A DNA stretch of 37,462 nt from Pseudomonadota bacterium (GTDB lineage Bacteria > SZUA-182 > DTGQ01): positions 1-37,462 of the forward strand of contig JAUWIR010000001.1 in NCBI GenBank assembly GCA_030605265.1, given 5' to 3'. This document shows, one piece after another, positions 498 through 37,134 of the stretch. The position numbers and the translations under genes are program-made. Under the pieces are notes generated by a model. The model saw only the letters and a program-made list of their open reading frames with translations, made no database searches and had not been told where the DNA came from. Within the stretch, counting starts at the first letter, position 1. Each line of letters opens with the position of its first letter.

Positions 498-1064
498 TTG
501 AAAATCAAGGTTATTGGAAACAGCATGGCAGGGCTGTTTCTAAACGGGAAAGTATTTAAGGTTCATATAAACTCGGCGGACTTTGACCTAGAGATTGGAA
601 GGGTAATCATTTTAAAAAAGGAGGGAATTCAAGGCTATTCTTTCAGGCAAGCAAAATCGGCCTTCAGAGCTGGGGAAAAAGAAGGAAGAAAAATCCCCGA
701 GCTAATGGAACATTTTTTATTAATACATAGGATTGTAGCCAAATTTAACCTGCAAGGTCGACTTTGCTTATGGGAAAAGGGTGATAACGACCGCTTTCCC
801 AAGGCATGTAAGCTGGAAAATGTTTTAGGGATAGTTACTGATATTGAAGATCATCCAGAGCTTATTACAAAATTGCAGCCTGATTTATGGAGAAAAAGAA
901 ATCGAAAATTATTAAAATTTTATAATATAGTTGGGAAAATATTTGTGGTGATAGAGGGGAGGGAAGGGAATAAAAGGCGGGGATTATTGCAGAAGATACA
1001 ACAAAAAGGTTTTTGGTCTATATTTTATTTTGTTTGTTCCTTGTTTGACTTGAAGGGCAAATAG
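498..1064 (+). CDS. soluble S26B/SipW-like (S24/S26 clan) serine peptidase; candidate leader peptidase
   Basis: TTG start with AGGGAG upstream. VIGNSMAGLF (Ser box), LLIHRIV (His box) and WEKGDND (GDN box) resemble ER/archaeal-type signal peptidases. There is no N-terminal TM segment. The 3' end overlaps the convergent kinase gene by 47 nt. Confidence 0.5.
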   Translation: MKIKVIGNSMAGLFLNGKVFKVHINSADFDLEIGRVIILKKEGIQGYSFRQAKSAFRAGEKEGRKIPELMEHFLLIHRIVAKFNLQGRLCLWEKGDNDRFPKACKLENVLGIVTDIEDHPELITKLQPDLWRKRNRKLLKFYNIVGKIFVVIEGREGNKRRGLLQKIQQKGFWSIFYFVCSLFDLKGK

Positions 1065-1989
1065 CCTGCCAAAAATCCTTATTTTTTTGAAATTTTAATT
1101 CATAAAAAGATACTTCATTAATAAAATCCAGGCTGCTTTGAAATACTCGCTTAGTTAAAAAAGGCTCGCGGGCAAAATATAAAACATTTTCCATCAACCT
1201 GCACAAAGATTCTTTTTTCGACAGCCTCCTTAAGTCTAATCCGGCGCTTTGCTTTAGTTGATAAATCCCTTGAATAGGAGAATAAAAATTTCCTCCTTTT
1301 ATTTCCTGCTCCCCCCAAAAAGGAGTGCTGTAAAGAAGGTAGCGATTTTCAACCTTTCTGATCAGTGAAATTTCATCACTTAAGACTGTATATTTGGTTG
1401 AATGCCTGGCAATGGTAGATTTTCCCGCTCCGGATTTGCCCATAAAAATGTAACCAAGCCCATCCTTTACTACAGAGGCGGCATGCAGTAAGAAGCCTCC
1501 TTCCTGAACCAAAATGAGAGAATAAAGAATTCGTAAAAAAGAATCAAAACTATAAATAGCTGCTCGGTTGATAACCTGGGCAACCCGGCTGTTTAGATTA
1601 ACCTCTCCTTCAAGGTCAGGCCTTCGAATAAAAAATCGATCGTCCCGGTAAGTCACATCTATCCATAACTCTTCATCGAGCGCCTGTTTTCGATTGCCCT
1701 CCTCGAATTGGCGTACATTCATATTTAGTTGCATGATGAGACGATCACGGCATGGAGTGTTTACACCCCTTTCATCTGACGGCACATACCGGCAAGAAGC
1801 AGTAAAGGGTTGATACTTCTCCATGATAAGTTGCATAAATGATGAATCGGCGGATCCTATGGAAATAGGGATACCGCCGATTTGTAATTGAATTGTATAA
1901 GAATTTTCATTTTTTTTATGCGGGGTTTCAGCCTCTATGCCTTTGTGCCTCTGTGCCTCTGTGTTTTCTTTTAACTTGAAATTATTCAT
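1018..1989 (-). CDS. HPr-kinase-related P-loop kinase (like the Ser kinases of lasso/RiPP clusters)
   Basis: GGFLLHAASVVKDGLGYIFMGKSGAGKST resembles the catalytic C-terminal domain of HPr kinase/phosphorylase. Length is 323 aa. The first ~30 codons (MNNFKLKENTEAQRHKGIEAETPHKKNENS) are read out of repeat copy 1901-1979, so the true start is uncertain. Confidence 0.7.
   Translation of the reverse strand: MNNFKLKENTEAQRHKGIEAETPHKKNENSYTIQLQIGGIPISIGSADSSFMQLIMEKYQPFTASCRYVPSDERGVNTPCRDRLIMQLNMNVRQFEEGNRKQALDEELWIDVTYRDDRFFIRRPDLEGEVNLNSRVAQVINRAAIYSFDSFLRILYSLILVQEGGFLLHAASVVKDGLGYIFMGKSGAGKSTIARHSTKYTVLSDEISLIRKVENRYLLYSTPFWGEQEIKGGNFYSPIQGIYQLKQSAGLDLRRLSKKESLCRLMENVLYFAREPFLTKRVFQSSLDFINEVSFYELKFQKNKDFWQAICPSSQTRNKQNKI
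1901..1979 (-). repeat. dispersed repeat family A, copy 1: core GAATTTTCATTTTTTTTATGCGG plus four tandem GCCTYTRT octamers plus TTTTAACTTGA
   Basis: Near-identical over about 80 bp to 5243-5321, and in reverse orientation to 34481-34545. Confidence 0.85.
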
Positions 1990-2012
1990 ATGAATCTATT
2001 TTAAAAGCATTA

Positions 2013-2076
2013 GAATTTTCATTTTATTTATGCTGCCTATCAGCTTAATTTAAAAGCATTGGAATTTTCGGCATCC
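2013..2076 (-). repeat. family A variant copy: same GAATTTTCATTTTATTTATGC core followed by ATCAGCTT words
   Basis: Shares the ~22-nt core with 1901, 2260, 5243 and 34525-34545. It is flanked by the direct repeat TTTAAAAGCATT(A/G)GAATTTTC at 2000-2020 and 2049-2069. Confidence 0.65.
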
Positions 2077-2106
2077 ATCATTAGTCAGTTTATACTCTTT
2101 TAATTC

Positions 2107-2172
2107 ACCATGAAGAACATGAAGAGCATGAAGGTTTATTTATTCCTTCTTTTCCTTCATGTCCTTCATGGT
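2107..2172. repeat. imperfect hairpin built from CATGAAG / CTTCATG words
   Basis: Left arm is ACCATGAAGAACATGAAGAGCATGAAGG and right arm is CCTTCTTTTCCTTCATGTCCTTCATGGT. A sister element lies at 5135-5182. Confidence 0.75.
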
Positions 2173-2259
2173 AAAAAAATAAAAAGCAAAAAAATACCAG
2201 ATTTCTTTCGGAAATAAAATAAAAGTGTATACTACTTTTCGTTCTTTATGAAAGATGCC

Positions 2260-2307
2260 GAATTTTCATTTTATTTATGCTGCTCATCAGCTTATCAGCT
2301 TAATTTA
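2260..2307 (-). repeat. family A variant copy: core plus two ATCAGCTT words
   Basis: GAATTTTCATTTTATTTATGCTGCTCATCAGCTTATCAGCTTAATTTA. Its end provides the TAA stop of the small ORF 2305-2469. Confidence 0.65.
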
Positions 2308-2469
2308 ACTTACACCATGTAATCCTCTTGGGAAAGCATATTTTATACAGGCATCTCCCTTACAGCAAGACAGGGCAAGGGTTTCGAAAACCTCTTCGGA
2401 AACAACCTTCGGCTTTTCATATAGTTTCTTAGTCTTGACAATTTTTTTCTCTATTTTCTTCTTTTCCAT
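2305..2469 (-). CDS. unannotated 54-aa ORF, putative RiPP (lasso-like) precursor peptide: MEKKKIEKKIVKTKKLYEKPKVVSEEVFETLALSCCKGDACIKYAFPRGLHGVS
   Basis: I translated this by hand; it falls below the 60-aa cut-off of the ORF track. The ATG lies 5 nt after the rSAM/SPASM stop, with AGGAGG (2479-2484) 9 nt upstream. It has a Lys-rich leader with YEKPKV (YxxPxL/V), Thr at -2 before Ala32, a 23-aa core with 3 Cys and Asp at core position 8, and a C-terminal Ser. Confidence 0.55.
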   Translation of the reverse strand: MEKKKIEKKIVKTKKLYEKPKVVSEEVFETLALSCCKGDACIKYAFPRGLHGVS

Positions 2470-2474
2470 GTCTT

Positions 2475-3530
2475 TTATCCTCCTATTAATGTTTTATTTC
2501 CTTTTGCCTTAGCCAGCCAGCAAGCGGCGCTGGAATGACCCAACAAGTCGCCGTCTTCAAGATAAGCTAAACCGGGGCATCGAGCACACCAGGATAAATA
2601 ATCACAATTTTTACAACCATGAACATTCTTCATCCGCATTTGGCGAATGTTTAGCATATCCGGTGAATTGTGCCAGATCCAGTTAAAATCGTGATCTCTC
2701 AGATTGCCGGAATTAATGGGCAGTTGCACACAAGGATTGACCTCGCCTTCAGGGGAAATATAACAAATATTATGGCCGGCGCTACAAAGGACGTCATCGT
2801 ATATTTCAGTTATTAAACAAGAAATATTTTCCGGCCTTTCACCTTTTTCTCCACCATAAAAAACCGGATCTTGCAAAACCATTTGCAAATCTTCCTGTGC
2901 TATGCGGTAATTAAGAGTATCTTTATTTCCATCATCCCGCATTGTAATCACCGGATCAAAGGCGCAGCCGGCCCCAAGATCAGTGGCTAAATCATACACT
3001 TTACGATATTCCTTAATATTTTGTCGCATGACGGGACATTTTATCTTTACTGAAATCCCTTTTTCCCGCATTTGCCGAATATTTTTTACAGTCTTTTCCC
3101 AGGATCCGGGAACGCCGGTAATGCCATCGTGTATCTTGGCATTGGCAGCATATAAACTCACGTGTACCTCTTGAAGATGCAGCTTCTGAAAGGCATCTAT
3201 TTCCTTTGTCCCCAACAGGGTCCCATTAGTAAAAACCTTCACTGCAAAATCAAGCGTGCGAGCATAGCGGATAATATCTATTAAATCCTCTCGCAACAAG
3301 ACTTCTCCACCGGATAGGGTCAAGACCAAGCAGCCTGCTTCGGCCAATTGCTCTAAAATCCGATTAATTTCCTCTAAATTTAATTCATGATCAGGAGTTT
3401 TACCTATCCTCCTCTCTCCATCCCTTTTTTCAACACAACAATGAATACATCGAAGATTACATCTCCTAGTCAAATTAATCTGGACGGCAAAGGGGATTTT
3501 TTTCTCCATGGTATGGGCTAAGATATCCAT
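2475..3530 (-). CDS. radical SAM / SPASM-domain peptide-modifying enzyme
   Basis: CNLRCIHC (CxxxCxxC) lies near the N-terminus, followed by GGEVLL. The C-terminal Cys-rich block CSAGHNICYISPEGEVNPC ... CKNCDYLSWCARC is typical of SPASM/twitch auxiliary-cluster domains. Confidence 0.9.
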   Translation of the reverse strand: MDILAHTMEKKIPFAVQINLTRRCNLRCIHCCVEKRDGERRIGKTPDHELNLEEINRILEQLAEAGCLVLTLSGGEVLLREDLIDIIRYARTLDFAVKVFTNGTLLGTKEIDAFQKLHLQEVHVSLYAANAKIHDGITGVPGSWEKTVKNIRQMREKGISVKIKCPVMRQNIKEYRKVYDLATDLGAGCAFDPVITMRDDGNKDTLNYRIAQEDLQMVLQDPVFYGGEKGERPENISCLITEIYDDVLCSAGHNICYISPEGEVNPCVQLPINSGNLRDHDFNWIWHNSPDMLNIRQMRMKNVHGCKNCDYLSWCARCPGLAYLEDGDLLGHSSAACWLAKAKGNKTLIGG

Positions 3531-3539
3531 TTGCTTTGA

Positions 3540-3839
3540 TTAATCCTTTTCTTCTGTCCTATTATCTTGCAGAATCAGCATTCCCTTTGACAATAACTCC
3601 TTCACAAAAGCCTGGCAATCCGTCCTGATTTTTTCATAGTCAACCATTTTATGCTCGTCATGGATAATTGCGGCCATATCTTCAATACTTCTTACTCCAT
3701 CACTTAACTCCCAAATCATTGATCCAATTTCATTGAGGGTATGCAGGGTATTGTCTTCCAAGGTCATGATCACTGCCTGGCCGTCAATTATCCTTGATGC
3801 TGTTTTTTCATTTCTATTTATGTACTTATTATCAATCAT
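3540..3839 (-). CDS. PqqD-family protein (RiPP recognition element)
   Basis: 99 aa. IIDGQAVIMTLEDNTLHTLNEIGSMIWELSDGVRSIEDMAAII follows the PqqD pattern. It sits immediately upstream of the rSAM/SPASM gene, and its start overlaps the upstream gene by 8 nt. Confidence 0.8.
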   Translation of the reverse strand: MIDNKYINRNEKTASRIIDGQAVIMTLEDNTLHTLNEIGSMIWELSDGVRSIEDMAAIIHDEHKMVDYEKIRTDCQAFVKELLSKGMLILQDNRTEEKD

Positions 3840-5073
3840 AAAGAAATCCCCCCTTATTTTCTGTGCATTGCAGCCTCATGATCATTCCTGTTAAAACCAC
3901 GGCAACAAAGGTATTAGCCATAAAGTGAAAATTAAAATCTACCAAGCAATGGATTGAGATAGCTATTAGGCCTCCCATAATTCCCAGCACTAAACTTCGC
4001 AATGTCCTGCTGGGCGCAGTCAAATAACACTTTATACTTTCCTTGAAAATTACTATCATCATCCAAAGAATAAGCAGAAAAGATACCATTCCCCACTCTG
4101 ACATCAATTGCAAATATTCATTATGCGCATAAGTATCTCTAATTTTTTTCTTCAAGTATTTTTCATATACATAGGGAAATGTTCCCGGGCCAGTGCCAAG
4201 AACCGGATAATCATGAATAAGGTCAAGGGTTGCTTGCCAAATTGGCACCCTGCCATTGAATGATTCTATTTCTTTTCTCCTTTTTTGAACAAAAAAGGAA
4301 CTTAGTTGATGATGCACATTATTAAAGCCAAATCCAGTAATAAATAGAAGACACACTAATGCTATTAATAATATCGGAACGAAACTCTTGCCGAGATGTT
4401 GAAATCTATATTTTTTCAAATACATTAATCCCAGTACCATTAAGGCACAAAGTAAAGAAATCCAACCTCCTCTTGAAAGTGTCAGGACAAAGGCTACGAG
4501 CATCATGCAAAGGCCATAGGCAAGAAAAACCTTCTTACCAATATCCATTTCCAAAATTAAAAGAACTATTGCTATTGGGATAATCATCATCAGGAAAGCG
4601 GCCAGATGGTTCGAGTTTGCAAAGGTAGAGGCAAGTTCGTAGCCCAGTCTTCCTTGTGAAGCCCCCAAATATTTAATCAATCCCCAAACAGACAGAAAGG
4701 CCCCTACAGCCATTAGACTGGAGACTAATAGAAAGAGCTGATTTTTTGTTCGTAATTTATTTACCACTGCATAATATACGATAATGTAATCAATAAGTTT
4801 CCAAAAGGCGCCAAAGCTTACAGCAGGCTTTATGGAAAATATGGAAGCAAGGAGAGTTAAACCCACAAAAACCACAATAGGATAATCCAGGGGAGTAGAT
4901 ATAAAATGGCTTTTTTTCTCTACCAGTATCTCCCCAATCCATAATGATAAAAGAATTAAAACCAGGGTATGAACAACACATACGGCCAGCCCTTTTTCTG
5001 TTCCTTTTGCTAATGGAGTGAAAAAGAGGATGCTGATCAGCAGACAGAAAATAAGATTATCGATCTTTTTCAA
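3832..5073 (-). CDS. O-antigen ligase / Wzy_C-family polytopic membrane protein
   Basis: About 10-12 hydrophobic segments. LSRGGWISL and YAHNEYLQLMSEWGMVSF resemble the Wzy_C signature. TTG start. It is translationally coupled to the PqqD gene. Confidence 0.8.
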   Translation of the reverse strand: MKKIDNLIFCLLISILFFTPLAKGTEKGLAVCVVHTLVLILLSLWIGEILVEKKSHFISTPLDYPIVVFVGLTLLASIFSIKPAVSFGAFWKLIDYIIVYYAVVNKLRTKNQLFLLVSSLMAVGAFLSVWGLIKYLGASQGRLGYELASTFANSNHLAAFLMMIIPIAIVLLILEMDIGKKVFLAYGLCMMLVAFVLTLSRGGWISLLCALMVLGLMYLKKYRFQHLGKSFVPILLIALVCLLFITGFGFNNVHHQLSSFFVQKRRKEIESFNGRVPIWQATLDLIHDYPVLGTGPGTFPYVYEKYLKKKIRDTYAHNEYLQLMSEWGMVSFLLILWMMIVIFKESIKCYLTAPSRTLRSLVLGIMGGLIAISIHCLVDFNFHFMANTFVAVVLTGMIMRLQCTENKGGFLYD

Positions 5074-5134
5074 CCGGCTTTCTCTTTGGTTATCTACTAT
5101 GAATGGCCAAGAATTTAACTTTTTATTTTAATCA

Positions 5135-5182
5135 AGAGCATGAAGTCTGATGAAATCTTCATGTCATTCATGCCCTTCATGG
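5135..5182. repeat. hairpin of CATGAAG / CTTCATG words (sister of 2107-2172)
   Basis: AGAGCATGAAGTCTGATGAAATCTTCATGTCATTCATGCCCTTCATGG. It lies between the nucleotidyltransferase stop and the Wzy_C start, next to family A copy 2. Confidence 0.7.
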
Positions 5183-5242
5183 TAATTCCTAAAATTTTAA
5201 AGTTTAAAACTGAGCAATTTTTTATATGCCTTGAACGTTCAG

Positions 5243-5321
5243 GAATTTTCATTTTTTTTATGCGGAGTTCCAGCCTTTGTGCCTCTGTGCCTTTGTGCCT
5301 CTGTGCCTTCTTTTAACTTGA
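5243..5321 (-). repeat. dispersed repeat family A, copy 2
   Basis: GAATTTTCATTTTTTTTATGCGGAGTTCCAGCCTTTGTGCCTCTGTGCCTTTGTGCCTCTGTGCCTTCTTTTAACTTGA. It encodes the last ~20 codons and the stop of ORF 5258-6508. Confidence 0.85.
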
Positions 5322-6508
5322 GGTCTTTTTAAAAGTCGAACAATTGAAAAAAATGGGTTTAATATATACAGAAAATACACCATCCCTGAACTCGGATTAA
5401 TCGAATATCGATAAGCGATAGCTTCACTAGAAGGGAAAAGTGTCCTCAATGCAGATTTCACTATCTGACTAAATCGATCATTCAAAAGGAGAATAAGAAA
5501 AAACTGCCTTAAGTCTGCACTATACGTGCCTCGAATAATTTCTTTTTTGCCTAGAAATTTTTTTAACATCTCAATCCTTTTCATTCGTTCAAACGGCAGA
5601 GTTACTCTCAGAAATTGGCCATTATGGTTAAAAAATCTATTAACCATGAATAGGGCAAAAGAAAAATTACTCCAAAGGCCTATTTTTTTAAGAGACTTTT
5701 CAACATAAAGCCAATCCATCCTCTCTTGATTCAGGACGAGAAATTGATAAAGATCCAGGAATTGTTTTAAATGTATATACTTAGAAGCATGGAGGTCTAT
5801 GATTAAATATAATAATGAATCCTCAATAGAAAAGGAACGAAATCTTTCTCCTTTGAGCTGAATCTCTCTGGCGTTACGCCACCATTGCTTTAAAGGGATA
5901 TGGTAATCTCTTGGTCTGGCTAAGCCCCAATGTAAATCAACGGAAACTCTCATTCCTCTGGGGAGTCGTTTATAAAATTGAAGGTTCCAGCTGTTTTCCG
6001 GGGAATGGTCAGTATCAATATAAGGCACTGGTTCATAGTTTTGGCTTTTGAGTAAATTTTTAGCTGAATCCAGCTCCTCTAATTTCACTAAAAAATCAAG
6101 ATCATTAAAAGACCGTAATTTTTCATCTGGGTATAATTGCCTAGCCCGGTATATTCCTTTAAGAGATATAACATCAATTCCTTTTTTGAAAAATTGAGCC
6201 ATTAAATGATCAAATTCGGAGGATAGAATAATAATTCTGGCCAGATGACTGTGCCATAATTTCTGGAACCTTGATATTACCTCCCTGGGCGTGTTTAACC
6301 AATTTAATCTATTCACTGCATTATAGAGAAGAGGAAAAACATCGTGGAAAAGGGCAAGCTTGATTAAATAATTCCAGTTAACTTTTTCCCGACTCAGAAT
6401 ATCCTTAATATGTCGGTTGGTATCATCTTCCTCATCGGGCGTAATTTGTGGCGTAATTAAGGCAAGGAAAAGCCTTTCTTCAAGGGTAAGATCCAAAAGT
6501 TTATTCAT
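5258..6508 (-). CDS. nucleotidyltransferase-fold protein of the PF14907-like 'uncharacterised nucleotidyltransferase' family
   Basis: SFNDLDFLV and VDLHWGLARP motifs are present. Size is ~400 aa. The gene lies next to PqqD and HprK-like genes, as in lasso tailoring sets. The C-terminal tail KRRHRGTKAQRHKGWNSA derives from repeat copy 2. Confidence 0.65.
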   Translation of the reverse strand: MNKLLDLTLEERLFLALITPQITPDEEDDTNRHIKDILSREKVNWNYLIKLALFHDVFPLLYNAVNRLNWLNTPREVISRFQKLWHSHLARIIILSSEFDHLMAQFFKKGIDVISLKGIYRARQLYPDEKLRSFNDLDFLVKLEELDSAKNLLKSQNYEPVPYIDTDHSPENSWNLQFYKRLPRGMRVSVDLHWGLARPRDYHIPLKQWWRNAREIQLKGERFRSFSIEDSLLYLIIDLHASKYIHLKQFLDLYQFLVLNQERMDWLYVEKSLKKIGLWSNFSFALFMVNRFFNHNGQFLRVTLPFERMKRIEMLKKFLGKKEIIRGTYSADLRQFFLILLLNDRFSQIVKSALRTLFPSSEAIAYRYSINPSSGMVYFLYILNPFFSIVRLLKRPQVKRRHRGTKAQRHKGWNSA

Positions 6509-18027: not shown

Positions 18028-18866
18028 TCATATTTGGCATACAAGATTAGGATAACCCCTCTCTTTCATCATTGAAAAACTTATTTTTTCAATTTCTCTA
18101 ACCATATTAGTTTCCATTTCTAATTGCCACTTTCCTTTATTATTTCGCATTATTGATGTTGTAGATTTTGCATCTCCTAAATTTTCACTTGGTTTGTGTA
18201 AAACAGCCATATTGCTTTCATATTTGACACCAATAAAATCACAAACAGATTTAAGTATACTTGGAGGATTTTCAATCAAGGACTCATAATTAAGCTCATA
18301 GTAATCCTCTTTCAAGTAATTAAAAGCATCCGATCGGCATTTCCGAATAGCATCAGTCCACATTTGAGCAGATCTGAAAGGGTTTTTATTCCAGGCTTTC
18401 ATATTGGAAAGGCAATGATCGCGAACATCTCTGACAATGTGGATAAACAAGGCTTTTGGAAATAATTCTTTGAGTAATTTTATATTTTGCATGTAATGAG
18501 GCGACTTATCTCCCCATATACTTTTACCCTCACATTCTGCGTATAATCTAAAAAAAGTACTTATTACCCCTGCGTATGAAAAAGTATCTATCTTTTCAAA
18601 CCAATATCTTTTATTAACTATATGAGAATATAATGGACCTTTTTTATCATTTTAAAAAATTCAACTTTGCTAATAAATTGGAAAAATGAATTAAAGTTTT
18701 CAGGAACACTTAAATCTCCAAATTTCGATACAGGATCGGCTAAGTGAGGAATGAAACTCGACTCCCAGAAAGGGATCGAAATTTTTGAGTGCTGAGAAAG
18801 AATTGTACGTAATAGTTTTGTGCCCGATCTTGGTCGCCCTACTATAAAAATTGGTCCTTTGAACAT
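18028..18866 (-). pseudogene. sulfotransferase (PAPS-dependent type) split by a frameshift
   Basis: The N-terminal ORF carries IVGRPRSGTKLL (5'-PSB loop). The downstream ORF, extended upstream in frame, reads ...YWFEKIDTFSYAG...WGDKSPHYMQNIKLLKELFPKALFIHIVRDVRDHCLS (3'-PB region). The frames switch within about 18620-18655, which contains a T6 run at 18640-18645. Confidence 0.75.
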
Positions 18867-18908: not shown

Positions 18909-20039
18909 TTATTGCGTAATTTTTTGTAAAATTTCGATTAGTTGTTGAATTACTATTTCAGGTGTATGTTCTTTTTTTATATATGATATTGCATTTTGGG
19001 ACATCCTGTATAGCAAGTCGCTCTGGTCATCGTTGCAAATTTTTTTTAAAACCTTTATGAACTGCTCTTCAGTTTTGACGCTTATGCCAATATTATATTT
19101 TTCAATAACTTGGTCGGGATCAAAAGATGAAAACACAGGTTTACAATTAGACCATGCTTGAAGAAATATATTTGGAAATCCCTCAATTAAAGAGGTACAA
19201 ATTAAAAGATCTGTGTGTTTAAAATAATAATCGATCTCTTCCACAGAAACATAATCAATATGAGTAAAGTTAGATAGACCGTTTTTTTGAGTTTGTATGT
19301 AATCATAAAAAGCGCTGTATTTGCTAGCTTTCCCTCCGATCATGGTAAAATGTATATTTGGGAACTCTTTTGCTATTTTTATATAAATCTCCGGACGTTT
19401 TATTGGGCTAATTGAGCCTACCCATAATACTTTCTTAACTTTTTTATTTTTTTTTAAAATATCTTTATCAGCTAGGTAAGGAAAAGGGATAATATTTTTT
19501 ATCACTTTCGCAGATAAGTTAAAATTTTTAAGCAATAGATTCTTTTGAATATTCGTTTGGCTAAGAACGATATGCGCATTTTTAATGCCATAAGCATATA
19601 TATATTTTTTTATATTAGATTTTATATATATAGTAGTATCCAAATTACAATCCATATCACTGGCTATAGCGTGAATCATTTTTTTTTTAAATATGTTACA
19701 AAATAAAGCAACAAAGCCGCTCTCATATTTTGCACCCCTAAAGTAATATATATCAGCGTTTGCTTTTTTCATTGCCCTGAACAGTTTTAATGTCTGAAAT
19801 ATGTTCTTGATATATTTTAACCCCTCATTCGGGTTGTAAGCTTTTATGAATTCAATTCCTTCGATCCACTCGTTATCTTTTGTTTTATCAGGTTTAACTA
19901 TAAAACAAATTTTCATCCCTCGTCTCTTCAGCTCACGAGCCAGCAAAGATTGTTGAAATTCGGCACCACCTATTGGTTCATCATATATCTGATTTCGAAA
20001 TGCAGAAATCGCATACGTACATATAAAGCAAATTTTCAC
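18909..20039 (-). CDS. GT4-family glycosyltransferase
   Basis: Probable GTG start at 20039 (VKICFICTY...) with GGAG 8 nt upstream. LICTSLIEGFPNIFLQAWSNCKPV is a GT4 E-x7-E-like region. Confidence 0.75.
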   Translation of the reverse strand: MKICFICTYAISAFRNQIYDEPIGGAEFQQSLLARELKRRGMKICFIVKPDKTKDNEWIEGIEFIKAYNPNEGLKYIKNIFQTLKLFRAMKKANADIYYFRGAKYESGFVALFCNIFKKKMIHAIASDMDCNLDTTIYIKSNIKKYIYAYGIKNAHIVLSQTNIQKNLLLKNFNLSAKVIKNIIPFPYLADKDILKKNKKVKKVLWVGSISPIKRPEIYIKIAKEFPNIHFTMIGGKASKYSAFYDYIQTQKNGLSNFTHIDYVSVEEIDYYFKHTDLLICTSLIEGFPNIFLQAWSNCKPVFSSFDPDQVIEKYNIGISVKTEEQFIKVLKKICNDDQSDLLYRMSQNAISYIKKEHTPEIVIQQLIEILQKITQ

Positions 20040-20474
20040 ATGAAAATCTCCCTGGTTTGTAGAGGCGTTTGAGCGTTTTAATACTCCTCCAGCCCCCACT
20101 AATTACAAAATTTCATCTCCATAAAGACGGCGTCCCCTGTAAATTAAGGGCTTTAGATGAATTGTAACTTTATGCTATGACCGTAACCCATTGATTTATC
20201 AAGTGTGATTTCAACCCTTAATTCGCATTTAATCCATACTTATACGCAAGATGCTCATATTTTAACAAACTGTACTTCACACGTTCATCCACATCTATGT
20301 CACACAGGTTGCTATCCTGTGAACAAACGGCCCCTTTCCAGGTTAAAACCCCTTCCTGGATTCCGCTGGCGCAAAGCCCTTTAATCCAAGCGTTAAGTTA
20401 TACGGCCCAGCCCCCGACGGGGTATTGCTTATCAGCAAGAAGATAGGGCAATGTAAAATCAATGAATAAAAGTT

Positions 20475-21887
20475 TCATTCGGATTCTGTATTTTGAAATT
20501 TAAGTCTGATGAGGTTAATATACATGGCGATAATCGGAAAAAGGTGCATATTATGATGATCCGGATAAATTTTTCTTCCGGAAATGGTGCCTGCCAAATA
20601 GTTCAGCAGGCAGACGAACAAAACCCATGCCAGAGGGGAATCTAATTCTTTTGCCAGTGACCATGCTTTTTTCAAAAAGAAAACCAGATAAACCATGACC
20701 AGGGAGAATATAATCAGCCCATTATCCACAAAAAATTCAATAAAGGCATTGTGTGCGCTGTTGGCTTGAAGGATATAGCCTTGGCGATATCGAGGGCTGT
20801 TCATCATGGAAAACCGGCCCACACCTAAAAACAACTGCCTGAGATTATGGAAGCGCTCCATCAATAGGGGCAGCCATATTTTATCTACCCTACCGGTAAG
20901 AACACTGTTCATATCACCTTTTTCAATGCCTGTAGACAACGTCCTTATCAAAAACCCCGGCAACCAGCAAATAAAAATTAAAGCAGACAGACCGATAAAA
21001 GAGAGCATAATGATTCTTTTTTTTAAAAAATAAAGCGTCAATATGATACCACTTAAAAAAACAATGATAGCGCTTCTTGACTGGAGCAATGCGACCGCTA
21101 CAGATGATAGAACGAAATTTGCAACAGAAAGCCTTTTACCAATCACCACTTGCCGGACCAGCAAAGGCGCGACAATAATATAGATACTTCCCACTGAGTT
21201 GTAATGCATTCCGAAAAACTTGCTGATCACATCATTGGTGGCGCCTCTTCCGGCGGTTATGGCTTTGATATTCAGCAAACCCACTATAACAACTGCGCAT
21301 GACAGCATAAAAATGGAATAACAGATTATATCAATGCATCTTTGAATATCTTCTTCTGTCCGAATGTGTTTTAAAATATAAAAAAAGGGGATGATGAACA
21401 AGGCGGGGCGTACCCACTCGGATAATAAATACCTCATGGGTGATCTGTGAAATTTGTCCGGGCCGAACATGACCAGCGTTTGCAAATAGCCAAGAGAGCG
21501 AAAAACCGCAACGCTGAATATTACAAAGTAGCTCGTCAGGAAAATCATACTTTTTTTTTCAATAAGATCTTCATTTTTCAGAAGACTTCCCCCAGAAAAA
21601 AAAAACATCGCAAATGTAAAGGAAGCTATTAAATTAAACGGTTTGGCCCCGGTCAGGCCCATGAGGTTTTTGGAAAAAAAGGGAATGTTGTAAAACGGCA
21701 TAATGAGGAAAAAAAAATAAAGGCTGTATTTTTTATCCCGCACTCCCAACCACGCGATAAAAGGTAGCAGGGCAAGCGCGATTCCTGCTTTTTGACCTGA
21801 AATAATGAGAAAACCGACAATAACGGATAGTAAAATCGTTAAAACGCAAGGTAATAAACTATTTGGAATATGTGTGTTTTTAAGCAT
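20475..21887 (-). CDS. Wzy-type O-antigen/EPS polymerase-like membrane protein
   Basis: About 12 hydrophobic segments. LQSRSAIIVFLSG and NSAHNAFIEFFVDNGLIIF (Wzy_C-like). Confidence 0.75.
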   Translation of the reverse strand: MLKNTHIPNSLLPCVLTILLSVIVGFLIISGQKAGIALALLPFIAWLGVRDKKYSLYFFFLIMPFYNIPFFSKNLMGLTGAKPFNLIASFTFAMFFFSGGSLLKNEDLIEKKSMIFLTSYFVIFSVAVFRSLGYLQTLVMFGPDKFHRSPMRYLLSEWVRPALFIIPFFYILKHIRTEEDIQRCIDIICYSIFMLSCAVVIVGLLNIKAITAGRGATNDVISKFFGMHYNSVGSIYIIVAPLLVRQVVIGKRLSVANFVLSSVAVALLQSRSAIIVFLSGIILTLYFLKKRIIMLSFIGLSALIFICWLPGFLIRTLSTGIEKGDMNSVLTGRVDKIWLPLLMERFHNLRQLFLGVGRFSMMNSPRYRQGYILQANSAHNAFIEFFVDNGLIIFSLVMVYLVFFLKKAWSLAKELDSPLAWVLFVCLLNYLAGTISGRKIYPDHHNMHLFPIIAMYINLIRLKFQNTESE

Positions 21888-21895
21888 ATTGTGCT

Positions 21896-23236
21896 TTATT
21901 CGAGGAGCGAGATTACCGGCCTGTATTTGCCGGTGGGATTAATCACCAGATCCTGCACTTCACTGACTGAAACATTCAGTTCGTAGTTGCTCTCATGCTT
22001 AATCTTTTGTATCAGCGGGCTAATGTCGCTTATCGATGCGCTGCCGCGAAGCTTGAGCCGGAGTTCAATATGGTCGATTGTGTCCTGAATTACCTGTCCC
22101 TGGATGAGCTCCGGATAATCTTTGAAAAAGTGAGGGAACATTTCGCCTGATATCATTCTACCGGACGGGGTTCTTACCAGATCAAGGCTTCTGCCGGTAA
22201 CGTTCTTGAATTGCAGCGATTGCCTTCCGCAAAAACATTTTTGGTCTGTTATCTGCCCCTGGTCCCCTATTCGGTATCGGATGAAGGGGAAGGCATGGTT
22301 TTCCAAGTCTGTAACCAGAATATCACCTTTTCCATACTCATCGGATTTTTCGATTTCAATAATGAATCTTTCCATGTTAATGTGCATACCTGTGTGGGCT
22401 TCACATTCGTGAGCCATGCTCCCAAACTCCCTGGAGCCGTATCGATTGAATACATGGTTTGATATGGTTTCCTGAATAATTTTACGCTGAAAACCATATA
22501 AAACCCCTGCCGAGGAAATCACAGCCGAAATTGAAAGGGGCTTTTTCCCCATAGTTTGCAGATACTTCCCAAACCCGTATAAAATGTTTGAGTAAGATTC
22601 AAGCAAGTATGGCGGATTCCTGAAGAGGTTACGATATTCAGCTTCGAACAATTTATCTCCGGCATTAAAGGCATCGATTGTCCTGAGGTTGTATAAATAA
22701 TTCCACAATAGTTTTTTTAAGTCTTCTGTTGTTTTCTGGACATCAGTGGGCGCCCCCCAGAGTTTTACATGGGGATATCCTTCTTTTTTGCCGCAGGTTT
22801 CAAATCCTCTGAGCGCAAGAGCGGCGGAAACAATTCTGCTATGTCTTGACTGGTAAAACACCAGGGGCTCACCGCTGGAGCCGCCAGTGGCATTTTTGCT
22901 GATTTCAGTTCGGGGATATTTTTCATTGATCAAATTGTTAAAATTTTCGCGGATAGTTCCCTTATCCAAAACCGGAAGGTTTGAGAGCATATCTAAAGTA
23001 AATTTCCGAGGATCTATCCCGGCCTGTGAAAAAATGCGTTGGTAATAAGGGCACCCGTTTGCCGCATTCTCAAAGAGCTGCCTGAGCTTCGTTTGTTGGA
23101 TTTTATATAACTGATCCAAAGACAAATATTCACCTTTTTTTAAATCTAGCGAAGCATTTCTTACCGCCCGGTGCCATTTGTTCAGTCGGCATCTGGCAGG
23201 ATAAATGATTCGGTTGGTTAATTTGGGGGGAAACAT
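21896..23236 (-). CDS. phenylacetate-CoA ligase / coenzyme F390 synthetase-like adenylate-forming enzyme (CapK-like)
   Basis: NATGGSSGEPLVFYQS, FNRYGSREFGSMAHEC and IRYRIGDQG follow the PaaK/CapK family pattern. Confidence 0.75.
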   Translation of the reverse strand: MFPPKLTNRIIYPARCRLNKWHRAVRNASLDLKKGEYLSLDQLYKIQQTKLRQLFENAANGCPYYQRIFSQAGIDPRKFTLDMLSNLPVLDKGTIRENFNNLINEKYPRTEISKNATGGSSGEPLVFYQSRHSRIVSAALALRGFETCGKKEGYPHVKLWGAPTDVQKTTEDLKKLLWNYLYNLRTIDAFNAGDKLFEAEYRNLFRNPPYLLESYSNILYGFGKYLQTMGKKPLSISAVISSAGVLYGFQRKIIQETISNHVFNRYGSREFGSMAHECEAHTGMHINMERFIIEIEKSDEYGKGDILVTDLENHAFPFIRYRIGDQGQITDQKCFCGRQSLQFKNVTGRSLDLVRTPSGRMISGEMFPHFFKDYPELIQGQVIQDTIDHIELRLKLRGSASISDISPLIQKIKHESNYELNVSVSEVQDLVINPTGKYRPVISLLE

Positions 23237-23545: not shown

Positions 23546-24570
23546 TTATTTTAATAATTTTATGGTATCTCCAATTCCTACTAAACTTGGTATTCTTGGA
23601 TTTTCAATGAAATCAAGTAAACGCCTGCCAACATACTTTATTCGTAAATTACTGTTTCCAGCAGAAGTGATTTTATTAATTTTTTTTAAATAGTTATCAG
23701 ATAAATATCTATGAAAATATTTTCTTTTAACTTTTATAGTATTGTCTGTAAAATAATACGGTTTTAATAATTTTTTATGAGTAGATAGATCATAAACTAA
23801 TCCAGCAGAACATTTATTCCATATCCTCTGTTTATATTTGTATATCACAAAGGTATATCTGTTAAATTAAAATTTCTGACAGCATTTAGATCTGGAAATA
23901 TAAAATTACCGAGTCCATAGGCAATTATACTCTGGTTATAATCTTCGACTGGTTGTATAGTATGGGCATGATGGCCTATAATAAGGTCGACACCTAAAGT
24001 TGCAATTTTTCTTGCAAGCCTAATTTACTCTTTTGTAGGATAATTGCAATGCTCTATCCCCCAATGTAACTGAACAAATATTTTATCAACCTTCCCGTTT
24101 AAAAATTTGGTATCTTTTTTTATCAATTCATAATCTATCGGTGCCGGACCAAATTTTAAATCTTTTACCTTAGAAATTTGATCATAATAATGCTTATAGC
24201 AATATCCCAGAATTCCTATTTTCAAATTATCCATATCGAAGATAACTGGGTTATTGTAATTGCCGGCAGACTCACCTGCACCAAAATATTTTATATTATT
24301 TTCTTCAAGAAAATTAATTGTATCAATAAAACCATCATTGCCGTAGTCCATTATATGGTTGTTGGCAAGTGAGACCGCCAGAGGTGGTTGTTTGAAAGTG
24401 CCCTTTAAGAATTTTCCTGAAGATTTTAGTACTACATTACCTTCTATCGGAGTATTACATTCTGTTAAAGGAGCTTCGAGATTACAAATCAAAGGGTATT
24501 TTTCCTATGGTATTTTATAAATTTTGTCTAAATAAACGTCTCCTATGAATAAAATCTTATTAAGTCCCAT
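23546..24570 (-). pseudogene. CapA-family (PGA_cap, metallophosphatase-like) capsule synthesis protein with two in-frame stops and a frameshift
   Basis: ATG at 24570 overlaps the flippase stop. The translation reads MGLNKILFIGDVYLDKIYKIP-TAG(24505-24507)-EKYPLICNLEAPLT...LANNHIMDYG...YPTKE-TAA(24025-24027)-IRLARKIATLGVDLIIGHHAH...GLGNFIFP. It stops at 23845-23847, and a different frame continues to 23546. Confidence 0.7.
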
Positions 24571-28541: not shown

Positions 28542-29843
28542 CTAATTCAATTCAGCAGATTGATCAGGTTTCTGCTGATGATAATATCCATAATGGTGAC
28601 GATAATAGCCATAGGAATAATATCCGTTCTTCTTCATATCCAGGCGGTTAAGGATAACGCCGTAAATATTTGCCTTCACAGCTTCAAGTTGCTGTTTGCA
28701 CTTTTGCACACCTTTGCGATTAGACTGCCCCACATGCACCACCAAGATTACTCCATCTACTTGTGAAGACAGGATACAGGCATCGCTTACAGCATTAACC
28801 GGCGGGGAATCAAAAATAATGGTATCGAATCGTTCTTTTAAAATACCAATTAACTCTTGTATTCTTCGAGAACCTAATAATTCCGTTGGATTAGAGGGAA
28901 TCGGCCCTGAATTCAAAATTTTCAAGTTATTTACCGGACAATCTTGAAGATATGAAGAAATCTTTTGATCAATAAAAGGGATATTTTCTGTTTTCAGTTT
29001 CAGCTTTTGAATGTTTTGAAAAAATTCATTATTCCCCCATCCATTCCCGCTAATCGAAGAATAACCCTCTAAAAATCTCTCTTCTTTAAAGGAAAACTTC
29101 CCCTGACGCAGTGAATAAATTTGGCGCAACAGCCCGGCAAGGTGAAGTTTTAAGGGCCCCTCAAGATCTTGAGGAGAAATTAAGTTCATATTCATTAATA
29201 TGGTTCCTAATTTTTCCTGAGCATAAACTTGTCTTTTTAAAGCTTTCATTTGCTGATCCGGAGTTATTTTCCCGCTTTCTATCAATAAGTTGCCAATACG
29301 CTCTTCTTCCGGACGATTTTTCCATTGAGCATCTTTCAAATAACCATCATGAAACCGGAGATGGTAAATTTGACCATTCTCTGAAATAGTCAATAAGCCG
29401 CTTTTACCCTGCATATTTAAAATATGAAACAAATCACCTATGCCATATTGAGAAAGGTCTCCTTCAGTCAGATTAGGAGTATATACATCAATCAAAAGCT
29501 TGGTTAATCCTTGATTGCGGTCATGACCAAATACCTTATAGAGGGAAGGCATCCGCAAGTCCGTATCTAGCAGTAAAACTTTTTGTCCTGCCTGGGCCAT
29601 GGTCAGCGCTAGATTAATGGCCATAGTGGTTTTACCTTCTTGAGGAAAGCTGCTGGTTATCAGCAGAAGTTTGCCTGGTTTTTCATTAAAAGAATAATGA
29701 ATATTTGTGCGTAATGTCTTAAAGGACTCACTAAAAGAAGAGGATAAATTCTCATCAATAATTAGGGAATACGACCCATTATTCCTTTTTGATTTTTTTA
29801 AGGTTTCCTTCTGCTTTTCTTCCGGCTCTTTTATCATTTTCAT
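28542..29843 (-). CDS. BY-type polysaccharide tyrosine autokinase with an inserted DUF4388-like plus MshEN-like (putative c-di-GMP-binding) module
   Basis: Walker A SSFPQEGKTT, Walker A' LLLDTDLR, Walker B TIIFDSPP and a C-terminal Tyr cluster YYSYGYYRHHYGYYH are present. About 180 extra residues (122-300) lie between A' and the SGPIPSNPTELL block. Confidence 0.85.
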   Translation of the reverse strand: MKMIKEPEEKQKETLKKSKRNNGSYSLIIDENLSSSFSESFKTLRTNIHYSFNEKPGKLLLITSSFPQEGKTTMAINLALTMAQAGQKVLLLDTDLRMPSLYKVFGHDRNQGLTKLLIDVYTPNLTEGDLSQYGIGDLFHILNMQGKSGLLTISENGQIYHLRFHDGYLKDAQWKNRPEEERIGNLLIESGKITPDQQMKALKRQVYAQEKLGTILMNMNLISPQDLEGPLKLHLAGLLRQIYSLRQGKFSFKEERFLEGYSSISGNGWGNNEFFQNIQKLKLKTENIPFIDQKISSYLQDCPVNNLKILNSGPIPSNPTELLGSRRIQELIGILKERFDTIIFDSPPVNAVSDACILSSQVDGVILVVHVGQSNRKGVQKCKQQLEAVKANIYGVILNRLDMKKNGYYSYGYYRHHYGYYHQQKPDQSAELN

Positions 29844-34480: not shown

Positions 34481-34545
34481 CAGGTTCAAAAAAATAGGCA
34501 CAAAGGCACAGAGGTTGTAACTCCGCATAAATAAAATGAAAATTC
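34481..34545 (+). repeat. dispersed repeat family A, copy 3 (opposite orientation, two octamers)
   Basis: CAGGTTCAAAAAAATAGGCACAAAGGCACAGAGGTTGTAACTCCGCATAAATAAAATGAAAATTC is the reverse complement of the 1901 and 5243 type. Confidence 0.8.
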
Positions 34546-35949: not shown

Positions 35950-37134
35950 TTACCCAGCCAAACGGGCCCAGAGGACTGCCTCCTTTGTGGCGCTGCAGCC
36001 ATGGCATCCCATACACCCTGCATTATTGGGTGATATATTGTCAATGGAATTTCTTACTAAAATCTCCCCCAGCTCTTGATACAATTGCAAAACAGTATCT
36101 TCTTTTCCTATATAGGAGGGGGAATAATCCCCCAGACCGGGAGCTCCCACCCGGAGCAAAAGAATTGAGGTTAGCACACCAATCCGGGCTGCTCTTTCAA
36201 TCCCTTTTACGGTCACCTCAAGGTCTTCATCAAATCCGATGATGTCGGTTGTAAATACTTTCCCCCGGCCAAAACAGGAAACCGCCATTTCCCAACTTTT
36301 CATATATTCCTCAGGAGAAAAGGCTTGGGCTTTTCCGGGACAGACCATTTGGCGAACATTTTCATCAAAAGATTCTAAAAATATCCCAATAGTATCAGCA
36401 ACCTGACTTAACTCTTTTAAGAGGGTCTGATCGAAAATAGGCTCTATTTGAACATGAATTGATAAATTTGTTTTTTCTTTTAAAAAGGAAGCAAAGGATA
36501 ACAGCTCTTTCCCTGTTTTTTCAGGAGTATCAATGGTCCCGCTGGTTAAGGTAATTGAGCGGATAGAATTGTTGGTAAGGGCTAATTTTAAAAATTTCAA
36601 ATTCATTTTATCAGGTAAGCGTTTGGGAAGATGAAACTTATCGACTAATAATGAAGTAGTGCAAAATTTACACCCTTGATTCTGCTCCAGATGCTTACAC
36701 CCCCGATATAAACACATAGAATAGGTCTGATAAGGATGAAGCTTGGCTTTTACTATTCTGGCGGTTTTTCGGTCAAACCACCCTCCATGCCAATTAAAGG
36801 GCGCTTCCTCTAAAAAAAGGCCATCATCAGTAAACACTATTTTTCTCTTTTTTGGGTCCTCATCAGATTGTTCTTCTGTCCACCATTTCGCAGGTATTGC
36901 ATGTTCAGCCAGATAATGGTCTTTGGGATAAATAACCAGACTGATCTGGCTCTTATAATTCCCGGGTTCCTCCCCTATATAGCAGTTTACTCCCTGCGGA
37001 CCGGCCCCCCCTTGGATGGATTGAAGATGAATCACTGGAACAGATTCATCTTCAAGGACTATTCCTCTAGAAAGTAGCTTAATCCGATCTTTCAGATTTT
37101 TTAATGCCTTCTCTTTATTATTTTTGGCTTTCAA
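35950..37134 (-). CDS. radical-SAM-like Fe-S enzyme with a non-canonical Cys motif
   Basis: CKHLEQNQGCKFC (Cx8CxxC) sits where a TIM-barrel rSAM cluster loop would be. It is followed by alternating beta/alpha-like segments and a C-terminal CMGCHGC. TTG start with AAGGGA upstream. Confidence 0.45.
   Translation of the reverse strand: MKAKNNKEKALKNLKDRIKLLSRGIVLEDESVPVIHLQSIQGGAGPQGVNCYIGEEPGNYKSQISLVIYPKDHYLAEHAIPAKWWTEEQSDEDPKKRKIVFTDDGLFLEEAPFNWHGGWFDRKTARIVKAKLHPYQTYSMCLYRGCKHLEQNQGCKFCTTSLLVDKFHLPKRLPDKMNLKFLKLALTNNSIRSITLTSGTIDTPEKTGKELLSFASFLKEKTNLSIHVQIEPIFDQTLLKELSQVADTIGIFLESFDENVRQMVCPGKAQAFSPEEYMKSWEMAVSCFGRGKVFTTDIIGFDEDLEVTVKGIERAARIGVLTSILLLRVGAPGLGDYSPSYIGKEDTVLQLYQELGEILVRNSIDNISPNNAGCMGCHGCSATKEAVLWARLAG

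Follow-up and report, generated by a model that had tools for sequence, protein, structure and literature searches.

A probable radical SAM-bearing relative of the LPP peptide pathway in an exopolysaccharide locus of uncultured bacteria

The LPP (linear polyphosphorylated peptide) system of Paenibacillus alginolyticus, lppA-K-B-S-D-N, was described in a study that set out from capsule loci of Bacilli with atypical lasso clusters (Popov et al., Nat Commun 2026, PMC13381572). Its conserved set consists of the SipW-like signal peptidase I LppS, the RRE protein LppB (RRE, recognition element of RiPPs, peptides that are made by ribosomes and modified after translation), the HprK-like kinase LppK, the NTP transferase LppN and an MsbA-like pump, and only a third of the signal peptidase I genes are linked to genes of lasso enzymes (PMC13381572). 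The precursors carry the motif YxxPxVLxHQxIxFETxxS. LppK was shown experimentally to polyphosphorylate Ser3 of the core, LppS (S29/H68/D93) cleaves after Thr-1 of FET and requires LppB as well as the leader residues F-3, E-2 and T-1, and LppN had no activity in a heterologous host (PMC13381572). LPPs and paeninodins are stated to be restricted to Bacillota, where they are often co-localised with capsule loci (PMC13381572). In the paeninodin/pseudomycoidin type of pathway, the C-terminal Ser of the peptide is phosphorylated and the phosphate is then hexosylated; D134 and D136 of PsmN are needed for the hexosylation of phospho-pseudomycoidin (PMC6993621). The subject of this report is a cluster of seven genes at positions 498-6508 of a 37,462-nucleotide stretch of metagenomic contig JAUWIR010000001.1 (assembly GCA_030605265.1, Pseudomonadota bacterium), which is called the window below. 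The cluster probably encodes a RiPP pathway that is a relative of the LPP system bearing a radical S-adenosylmethionine (SAM) enzyme; the probability of this reading is put at roughly 0.6.

The original prediction had seen in this region a lasso-type tailoring set lacking a lasso cyclase and joined to a radical SAM/SPASM enzyme. All seven open reading frames (ORFs) are present in the ORF listing with the coordinates and strands that it gave:

498-1064, plus strand: SipW-like (archaeal-type signal peptidase I, S26B) predicted leader peptidase (TIGR02228 at 26 bits, and motifs)
1018-1989, minus strand: ScmC-type P-loop kinase-like protein with HprK/PEPCK fold (PF27840, TIGR04249, AlphaFold2/Foldseek)
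2305-2469, minus strand: precursor peptide of 54 aa (conserved small ORF family)
2380-2469, minus strand: predicted precursor leader, Met1-Thr30 (alignments and family statistics)
2305-2379, minus strand: predicted 24-aa core LALSCCKGDACIKYAFPRGLHGVS and stop codon (three Cys, C-terminal Ser)
2475-3530, minus strand: radical SAM/SPASM enzyme (PF04055 and PF13186)
3540-3839, minus strand: discrete PqqD-family RRE (PF05402)
3832-5073, minus strand: Wzy_C-family membrane protein, O-antigen ligase/polymerase-like (PF04932)
5258-6508, minus strand: NTP_transf_5 nucleotidyltransferase-fold protein (PF14907)
1901-1979, no strand assigned: 79-nt repeat element, with a second long copy at 5243-5321; the copies flank cassette genes

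The intergenic distances, read along the minus strand, are -7 nt between the genes of UDP-glucose dehydrogenase and a GT4 glycosyltransferase, +4 to the NTP_transf_5 gene, +184 to Wzy_C, -8 to PqqD, +9 to the radical SAM gene, +5 to the precursor and +315 to the kinase. This spacing makes the cassette transcriptionally continuous with the upstream exopolysaccharide (EPS) genes, and the 8-nt overlap of the 3' end of the Wzy_C gene with the start of the PqqD gene places these two in the same operon. The peptidase and kinase genes converge, with an overlap of 47 nt at the 3' end of the latter. A Shine-Dalgarno sequence, AGGAGG, lies 8 nt upstream of the precursor ATG. Promoter and terminator scans of the window gave background level only.

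The gene set recurs elsewhere. Close homologues (61-70% identity for the radical SAM enzyme, 58-69% for the kinase) occur in a handful of unclassified metagenome-assembled genomes (MAGs) and metagenome contigs, and a scan of a genome collection with the kinase protein gave 4 close loci only, all in unclassified MAGs. Hidden Markov models (HMMs) of the components were built and scored on every locus retrieved, 22 of which came from a metagenome scan. The related loci fall into a close group (L003, L005, L007, L008, L010 and L011) and a distant one (L012-L014, L015-L018, L020, L021, L023 and L038), and the distant ScmC-type kinases, at 30-37% identity, keep the same gene company. The gene orders differ: ScmC-PqqD-rSAM-precursor-S24 peptidase-B12 rSAM-ABC exporter-NTP_transf_5 in L012 (rSAM, radical SAM enzyme), precursor-(peptidase)-ScmC-PqqD-rSAM-NTP_transf_5 in L013, precursor-peptidase-ScmC-PqqD-rSAM in L014 and NTP5-ScmC-PqqD-rSAM-precursor…precursor-peptidase in L038 (NTP5, NTP_transf_5). 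A precursor is present in 18 of the 18 loci that have a strong ScmC-type kinase and sufficient flanks (L038 counted), and PqqD and radical SAM/SPASM genes, adjacent to each other, in 16 of the 16 with sufficient sequence. The peptidase was detected in 15 loci and NTP_transf_5 in 10. The proposed partnership of the peptide with a SipW-like peptidase and a radical SAM/SPASM enzyme, both obligate partners, is thereby upheld. The recurring core consists of the precursor, the SipW-like peptidase, the ScmC-type kinase, the discrete PqqD RRE and the radical SAM/SPASM enzyme, to which NTP_transf_5 is often added as an accessory. In many metagenomic lineages that are unrelated to one another, the same gene set, tight operon and conserved peptide are seen, and the five core genes are inherited together. 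Loci L024-L036, with weak HprK-like kinases (below 110 bits), had no precursor match and were set aside as other families.

The record titles of the matches name Pseudomonadota, Thermodesulfobacteriota, Terriglobales, Methylomirabilota and Elusimicrobiota, and the Wza and PEP-CTERM genes of the window are signs of a Gram-negative-type host. The EPS setting, noted originally for the window, is not universal. It is found in the window, in all loci of the close clade and in L038, all of which lie among sugar-nucleotide/EPS genes; L012-L014 are not in EPS loci, so that the cassette is self-contained. Some loci have additional genes. Between precursor and kinase, L003 (11424-13514, 696 aa) and L005 (11917-15531, 1204 aa) encode a secreted-type protein of very large size in which CHB_HEX_C_1/Fn3_assoc domains are repeated; the window has at this place a 315-nt repeat-filled gap only. 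An extra B12-binding radical SAM enzyme and an ABC exporter, the only such exporter among the related loci, stand between peptidase and NTP_transf_5 in L012 (13014-14654); some peptides of the family are therefore probably further modified, for example by methylation, and exported.

The precursor ORF had no family match in profile searches. Its leader has a Lys-rich N-terminus, the motif Y17-x-x-P20-x-V22 of the RRE-binding type and the stretch S24EEVFET30. A homologous ORF of 54-58 aa was found in each close locus (L003/L004, L005/L009, L007, L008, L010, L011), mostly directly after the radical SAM gene; in L010 it has been displaced to beyond the kinase, and this speaks for selection on its presence and not on its position. 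In the alignment of the close clade the N-terminus is variable and Lys-rich, Y17, P20, S24-E-E, F28-E-T-L-A-L, C35-C36-K37 and C41 are invariant, and the invariant C-terminus is G-L-H-G-V-S-COOH. Over the last 38 codons the synonymous substitution rate (dS) is saturated and the nonsynonymous rate (dN) is 0.05-0.21, with dN/dS of 0.04-0.35 where it is computable. By these sequence comparisons the ORF, originally only a candidate precursor, is a real gene under purifying selection.

A profile made from three close members was searched against 1.84 billion representative proteins, and at E<=1e-3 it retrieved a family of 119 clusters, almost all of 41-79 aa, with the consensus KPYExPxVxSEEVFET-LALxCxK…C…S, where the hyphen stands after FET. 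Residue statistics were counted over 118 sequences and numbered from FET, with T as -1. In the leader, Y-14 and P-11 are each conserved in 109 sequences, V/I/F is found at -9 and S-E at -7/-6, followed by F-3 (103/118), E-2 (113/118) and T-1 (106/118). After FET come Leu or Met at +1, A+2 (106/118), L+3 (101/118), Ala/Ser/Thr at +4, C+5 (109/118) and K+7 (89/118), and then a hypervariable stretch with one or two further Cys. The part after FET has 2-3 Cys in 116 of 118 sequences and a median length of 22 aa, with cores spanning 9-72 aa. The C-terminal residue is Ser in 109 (92%) and Thr in 4 (3%); a Ser end like that of paeninodin and pseudomycoidin had been foreseen from the window. By analogy with LppA the cleavage site is predicted after Thr30. 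L038 has two precursor paralogues (8201-8371 and 11505-11669) whose leaders differ at the N-terminus and whose RRE motif, FET and core are identical (…PYTKPGFVSEKIYETLALGCGKLPGQGGFCNAAPRRS).

Profile searches match the predicted identities of the radical SAM/SPASM enzyme and of the PqqD, Wzy_C and PF14907 proteins. The PqqD protein scores 50.7 bits with PF05402, and its best NCBIfam match is lasso_PqqD_Bac. Among Protein Data Bank (PDB) structures its best match is LppB (9x8z chain B, E 8.5e-6), followed by the lasso RRE TbiB1 (2e-4) and 9x90 (0.035); 9x8z is LppB bound to its leader (PMC13381572). In the alignment, LppB D70, which hydrogen-bonds the leader Tyr, maps to D74 of the window protein, N33, which holds the Pro kink, to N36, F74 to F78, and L32/M78, which line the Val pocket, to L35/L82.

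The radical SAM enzyme matches PF04055 (90 bits) and the SPASM domain PF13186 (38.5 bits). Its CxxxCxxC motif lies at Cys24/28/31, the C-terminal half holds nine Cys, and no RRE is fused to it. Its closest solved sequences are PqqE (6c8v, full length, E 7e-15) and SkfB. None of the curated NCBIfam models reaches its cutoff with this protein, the peptide maturases AlbA, StsB and SkfB scoring 85 of 850, 87 of 625 and 72 of 300 bits, respectively. Some relatives at about 40% identity are PqqD-rSAM fusions. One of these, L037, was considered as a cassette member and rejected, as it has neither ScmC nor the peptide, and its small ORFs, perhaps a toxin-antitoxin pair, look unrelated; the family at about 40% identity is thus broader than this cassette.

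The kinase ORF had no match in a local Pfam profile search. Its best NCBIfam match is ScmC (TIGR04249, 40.2 bits, cutoff 125), and precomputed Pfam matches place it in PF27840, 'ScmC'. The profile search against the PDB gave generic P-loop matches only, and a structure model was therefore needed to find its kinship. The AlphaFold2 model, made from 36 family sequences, has a pLDDT of 87.5, with residues 1-30 disordered. Foldseek matched it to ATP-dependent phosphoenolpyruvate carboxykinase (PEPCK) at E~1e-8 and to HPr kinase/phosphorylase (HprK/P) at E 1e-5 to 5e-4; HprK/P shares its P-loop fold with PEPCK. The invariant columns H169, G-x-S-G-A-G-K-T (184-192) and D205-E206 match the HprK signature. 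The predicted HprK-like kinase is thus confirmed at the level of the modelled fold and the P-loop signature: judged by the model, it is an HprK/PEPCK-fold protein of the ScmC type. The conserved part begins at about codon 31 (about nt 1899 downward), and codons 4-30 are repeat element. A suggested relation to the HPr-rel-A models (TIGR04352/TIGR04353) did not materialize: with HprK_rel_A, whose cutoff is 200 bits, the score was 26.6 bits over 47 residues, and there was no HPr-rel-A PqqD match at E<=0.01.

The window peptidase reaches 26 bits with TIGR02228 (archaeal signal peptidase I), below the cutoff of 51.85. This low score is due to an insertion of about 35 aa in its clade. The homologue of L012 scores 71.2 bits with the same model and matches SipW too. 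The motifs G-x-S-M, H-R-[IV]-[IV] and G-D are common to 13 family members, and in the window the putative catalytic residues are Ser9 (GNSM), His77 (IHRIV) and Asp96/98 (GDND). With the Ser/His/Asp motifs invariant, the assignment as a SipW-like peptidase stands.

The NTP_transf_5 protein scores 160.9 bits with PF14907. Its metal-binding motif D136-x-D138 is kept in 5 homologues and corresponds to D134/D136 of PsmN. The Wzy_C protein matches PF04932 at 88.5 bits and, below cutoff, the IctB family (122 bits) and PEP_O_lig_1 (77 bits). Homologues lie near the cassette also in L005 and L010 and are not in the cassette in L003 and L012-L014; Wzy_C is a clade-specific accessory gene.

From these components the following order of events may be proposed. 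The PqqD-type RRE would bind the precursor through Y17-x-x-P20-x-V22, as its conserved contact residues suggest, and would present it to the radical SAM/SPASM enzyme. The latter would introduce one or more Cys-derived crosslinks, most likely, or another radical modification into the 24-aa core, where Cys+5, Lys+7 and one downstream Cys are the conserved residues available. The ScmC-type kinase would phosphorylate a Ser of the core, most likely the C-terminal one, by analogy with paeninodin and pseudomycoidin. The SipW-like peptidase, if it acts as its homologue LppS does on LppA, would remove the leader after F-E-T and release LALSCCKGDACIKYAFPRGLHGVS. Finally, NTP_transf_5 may, as PsmN does, decorate the phosphate, the added group being probably a sugar supplied by the surrounding EPS pathway.

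Several observations weigh against this reading. We infer everything downstream of the gene content. The link between this peptide and the LPP leader rests on motifs, since neither the peptide sequence nor its profile matched a PDB chain at E<=10. The spacing from YxxP to FET is 2 residues shorter than in LPPs, and HQ and Ser+3 are absent. The site of phosphorylation is a guess because the LPP phospho-site Ser3 has no counterpart (+3 is Leu, +4 Ala/Ser/Thr), and the role of NTP_transf_5 is uncertain in view of the inactivity of LppN in a heterologous host. The window peptidase has only 8 residues before Ser9 and so lacks the N-terminal helix by which LppS docks on LppB. By component HMM scoring the peptidase was not detected in L010 and L016, and NTP_transf_5 is absent from L014 and L018. 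The cassette is also without an exporter, as no ABC transporter was found among the window ORFs of at least 90 aa, the set covered by the window searches for ABC transporters, Asn_synthase and Transglut_core3. The best NCBIfam matches of the radical SAM enzyme are the tetrapyrrole enzymes AhbD (168 bits) and NirJ2 (158 bits), at about a third of their cutoffs.

These last matches, together with AhbC, lead to a different and unlikely reading, a plain LPP-type pathway in which the peptide undergoes no more than phosphorylation or glycosylation and cleavage, and the radical SAM enzyme has as its substrate not the peptide but a sugar, a cofactor or a tetrapyrrole from the EPS pathway. A sugar-modifying radical SAM enzyme, cytosylglucuronate decarboxylase, is among the PDB matches, and the locus is rich in sugar-tailoring genes and has a second radical SAM gene. 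The tetrapyrrole scores are, however, far below their cutoffs, and the nearest solved sequences are those of the peptide maturases PqqE, over the full length, and SkfB. Moreover, the gene adjoins PqqD and accompanies the precursor in all 16 loci with sufficient sequence, including L012-L014, which have no EPS genes; some family members are fused to PqqD, and Cys is conserved in the core.

In a speculative and unlikely extension of the LPP-like reading, the ribosomally made peptide, instead of being a free natural product, would serve the exopolysaccharide as a handle, its phospho-Ser being extended by NTP_transf_5 and joined to EPS by the Wzy_C ligase-like protein of the operon. After radical SAM crosslinking and leader removal, NTP_transf_5 would add a sugar-phosphate to the C-terminal phospho-Ser, the Wzy_C protein would transfer an undecaprenyl-linked EPS unit or chain onto the peptide, and the resulting peptide-phosphoglycan conjugate would prime, cap or anchor the polymer. 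Wzy_C enzymes of the PilO/PglL type glycosylate Ser residues, including the C-terminal Ser of pilin. Such a handle would explain why Wzy_C is translationally coupled to PqqD though the locus has a second Wzy_C-like gene, why all close-clade cassettes sit in sugar-nucleotide/EPS loci, and why LppN is inactive outside its native glycan context.

It is improbable that the pathway makes a cofactor in the manner of pyrroloquinoline quinone (PQQ) or mycofactocin, with the peptide as a sacrificial scaffold of which a few crosslinked residues are excised and phosphorylated or glycosylated into a redox cofactor or signal. The PqqD and PqqE-like pair would fit this, the mycofactocin maturase is among the top matches, and mycofactocin biosynthesis also has a peptidase and a sugar-adding enzyme. 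Most loci are without an exporter, and the strictly conserved positions (Cys+5, Lys+7 and the C-terminal Ser) are few in an otherwise variable core. Hypervariability of the core in both length (9-72 aa) and sequence is, on the other hand, typical of secreted RiPPs; L012 has its ABC exporter, the logic of leader and peptidase is that of the LPPs, where a 45-aa core is released, and no dehydrogenase partner recurs beside the cassette.

Very unlikely is a split lasso cluster, in which the peptide would be a lasso precursor whose cyclase and B2 protease come from genes in another part of the genome, with only tailoring left to the genes here. The predicted lasso-type set of RRE, kinase and nucleotidyltransferase is indeed present with a lasso-like YxxP leader. 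The pairing of an RRE with a [Y/W]xxPx[L/V/I] leader motif, as lasso systems have it, is found here (the leader in the form YxxPx[VLI]), the best NCBIfam match of the RRE is a lasso PqqD chaperone, and the kinase and NTP_transf_5 are typical of paeninodin-type tailoring. Position 9 of the window core is Asp, and in Bacilli one-third of the LPP loci co-localise with lasso genes. The core itself departs from the lasso rule, which calls for Gly/Ala/Ser/Cys at the first position and for a conserved Asp/Glu at 7-9: +1 is Leu/Met, +7 is Lys (89/118), and Asp9 occurs in the window alone. Even in the close clade, core positions 7-9 have no conserved acidic residue, the sequence being LALACCKSNAC in L003, L005, L007 and L008. 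No ORF among those searched in the 37-kb window matches Asn_synthase (PF00733) or Transglut_core3 (PF13471), and among the called genes of L003, L005, L012-L014 and L038 PF13471 is absent and there is no cyclase. The absence of both lasso enzymes that had been noted for the window thus extends to all of the approximately 18 related loci. The only PF00733 entry in their gene tables, that of L013, is a faint match on a QueC protein, which is not a cyclase and whose gene lies 4.6 kb upstream of the cassette. In addition, a dedicated SipW-like peptidase already provides for leader removal, and the LPPs are a precedent for a cyclase-free pathway.

Chance juxtaposition, in which a radical SAM/PqqD pair would merely have come to lie next to an LPP-like set within a mosaic EPS locus, is hardly credible. 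Gene fragments and repeats, the interrupting Wzy_C gene and the 315 nt between the kinase and peptidase genes and the rest (filled by a large gene in L003 and L005) could be cited for it, but the five components occur together in about 18 independent loci with unrelated contexts and differing gene orders, a recurrence that rules out coincidence.

Profile searches show the remainder of the window to be an EPS locus of the PEP-CTERM type with its genes on one strand. Its genes encode UDP-glucose dehydrogenase, several GT4 glycosyltransferases, two heparinase II/III-like proteins, methyltransferases, a flippase, a BY-kinase, Wzz/GNVR, Wza, a priming phosphotransferase and a PEP-CTERM protein. The window contains no tRNAs or Rfam families. 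The heparinase II/III-like proteins (PF07940 and PF16889; 9030-11021 and 14562-16565, minus strand), together with a 154-aa C-terminal fragment of a sulfotransferase (18028-18492), hint at a glycosaminoglycan-like, possibly sulfated or epimerised polysaccharide. Methyltransferases resembling DVU_1556 lie at 13862-14581 and 11046-11717. Further fragments are those of a hydrogenase maturation protease (63-341, 92 aa, N-terminal), a GFO/IDH-type dehydrogenase (12554-12853, 99 aa) and a PGA_cap protein (24025-24492, 155 aa), and from these fragments the locus appears mosaic or decaying in places. The region 20001-23000 has a GC content of 0.40-0.44, against 0.30-0.35 in its flanks, and may have been acquired horizontally; its genes encode the weak second Wzy_C-like protein (20475-21887, 30 bits) and a PaaK/F390-synthetase-like CoA ligase (21896-23236, DVU_1553-like). 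A DUF4388 domain and an MshE-related cyclic di-GMP-binding motif (NF053729, 46 bits, cutoff 38) are inserted into a polysaccharide tyrosine autokinase (28542-29843, minus strand; TIGR01007, 199 bits) and split it, which suggests control of the EPS chain-length/export machinery by cyclic di-GMP. The second radical SAM gene (35950-37134, minus strand) stands beside the PEP-CTERM gene and is unrelated to that of the cassette; its product lacks a SPASM domain and resembles the MSMEG_0568 family (112 bits, below cutoff).

The repeat has a 21-nt core, GAATTTTCATTTTWTTTATGC, with 5 exact copies in the window where 0.03 are expected by chance. Copies of the core lie at 2013-2033 and 2260-2280 (plus strand) and 34525-34545 (minus strand), and the two others are in the long copies at 1901-1979 and 5243-5321. 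The 79-nt form includes four tandem GTGCCTCT/GTGCCTTT octamers, and its two copies are 90% identical. The sites of the repeat are after the NTP_transf_5 gene, after the precursor stop, before the kinase gene and between the PEP-CTERM and priming-transferase genes. The copies artificially lengthen the kinase ORF at its 5' end by about 30 codons and the NTP_transf_5 ORF at its 3' end, where the last approximately 18 codons are repeat-derived; homologues do not align there. The repeat could be a regulatory or REP-like element.

The nearest relative in terms of profiles is the SynChlorMet (SCM) cassette, its closest NCBIfam neighbour and a sister system. Both combine a ScmC-like protein, a PqqD homologue and a radical SAM/SPASM enzyme in one cassette. 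Besides the ScmC score of the window kinase given above, TIGR04249 gave 39-52 bits on the kinases of L012 and L013, and the window proteins score 28.2 of 100 bits with ScmD (TIGR04248), 103.5 of 400 with ScmE (TIGR04250) and 85 of 400 with ScmF (TIGR04251). SCM differs in having two radical SAM/SPASM enzymes, as opposed to one here, and the precursor family and the SipW-like peptidase are identified here. The TIGRFAMs text reportedly gives the SCM precursor as 'not identified', the cassette having been flagged in silico over a decade ago. The literature search found no paper on the SynChlorMet cassette and nothing relevant on PF14907 with PqqD, on an HprK-related kinase with radical SAM/SPASM or on the peptide motifs.

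The PqqD/PqqE, sactipeptide (SkfB/AlbA), ranthipeptide and MftB/MftC systems resemble the cassette in pairing a discrete PqqD RRE with a SPASM radical SAM enzyme that here presumably acts on a small Cys peptide, but none of them has an HprK-fold kinase, a SipW-like peptidase or NTP_transf_5. With the paeninodin/pseudomycoidin type it shares the HprK-like kinase and NTP_transf_5, the discrete RRE for a [Y/W]xxP leader and the Ser end of the precursor. It differs from that type in having no macrolactam synthetase or B2 protease and no conserved ring-forming acidic residue, in the predicted removal of the leader by a serine peptidase, and in the presence of the radical SAM/SPASM enzyme.

The likeness to the LPP system is more extensive. 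It comprises the SipW-like Ser/His/Asp peptidase, the discrete PqqD RRE, for which LppB is a nearer relative than any lasso RRE of solved structure, the HprK-like kinase, NTP_transf_5, the lack of a lasso cyclase, the frequent embedding in capsule/EPS loci and a leader with YxxPxV and F-E-T. The LPP domain table includes NTP_transf_5, PqqD and TIGR02228 (PMC13381572), and the same models match the window. A lasso kit without a cyclase in an EPS locus, as originally put forward, is therefore largely pre-empted as a novelty by the LPP family (PMC13381572). The text of the LPP paper and its available supplements contain no mention of radical SAM/SPASM (PMC13381572), whereas in the present cassette such an enzyme is obligatory. 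The kinase here is of the ScmC type (PF27840), the peptidase has no N-terminal docking helix, and the window has no MsbA-like exporter. The core is short, with 2-3 Cys and a Ser end, while LPP cores are long, variable and phosphorylated on Ser3, and the hosts are Gram-negative-type, uncultured bacteria outside Bacillota.

What is new here is the obligatory radical SAM link, the large precursor family with a predicted cleavage site, its phylogenetic breadth, the short 2-3-Cys core ending in Ser and the ScmC-type kinase; this set of genes with a radical SAM enzyme and a conserved peptide, recurring in many uncultured bacteria, is not previously described. If the proposed reading is true, it adds a radical SAM step to the recently found LPP class and means that, contrary to what has been claimed, the class is not confined to Bacillota. 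Cassettes of the ScmC/PqqD/radical SAM type without a known substrate would gain a precursor, a peptidase for its leader and a predicted site of cleavage, and the short cores, more than 100 in number (about 22 aa, 2-3 Cys, C-terminal Ser), would serve to probe the function of the radical SAM enzyme. The association with polysaccharide loci, common to the LPPs of Gram-positive bacteria and the cassettes of the Gram-negative type, raises the question of a role of these peptides in capsule or biofilm biology.

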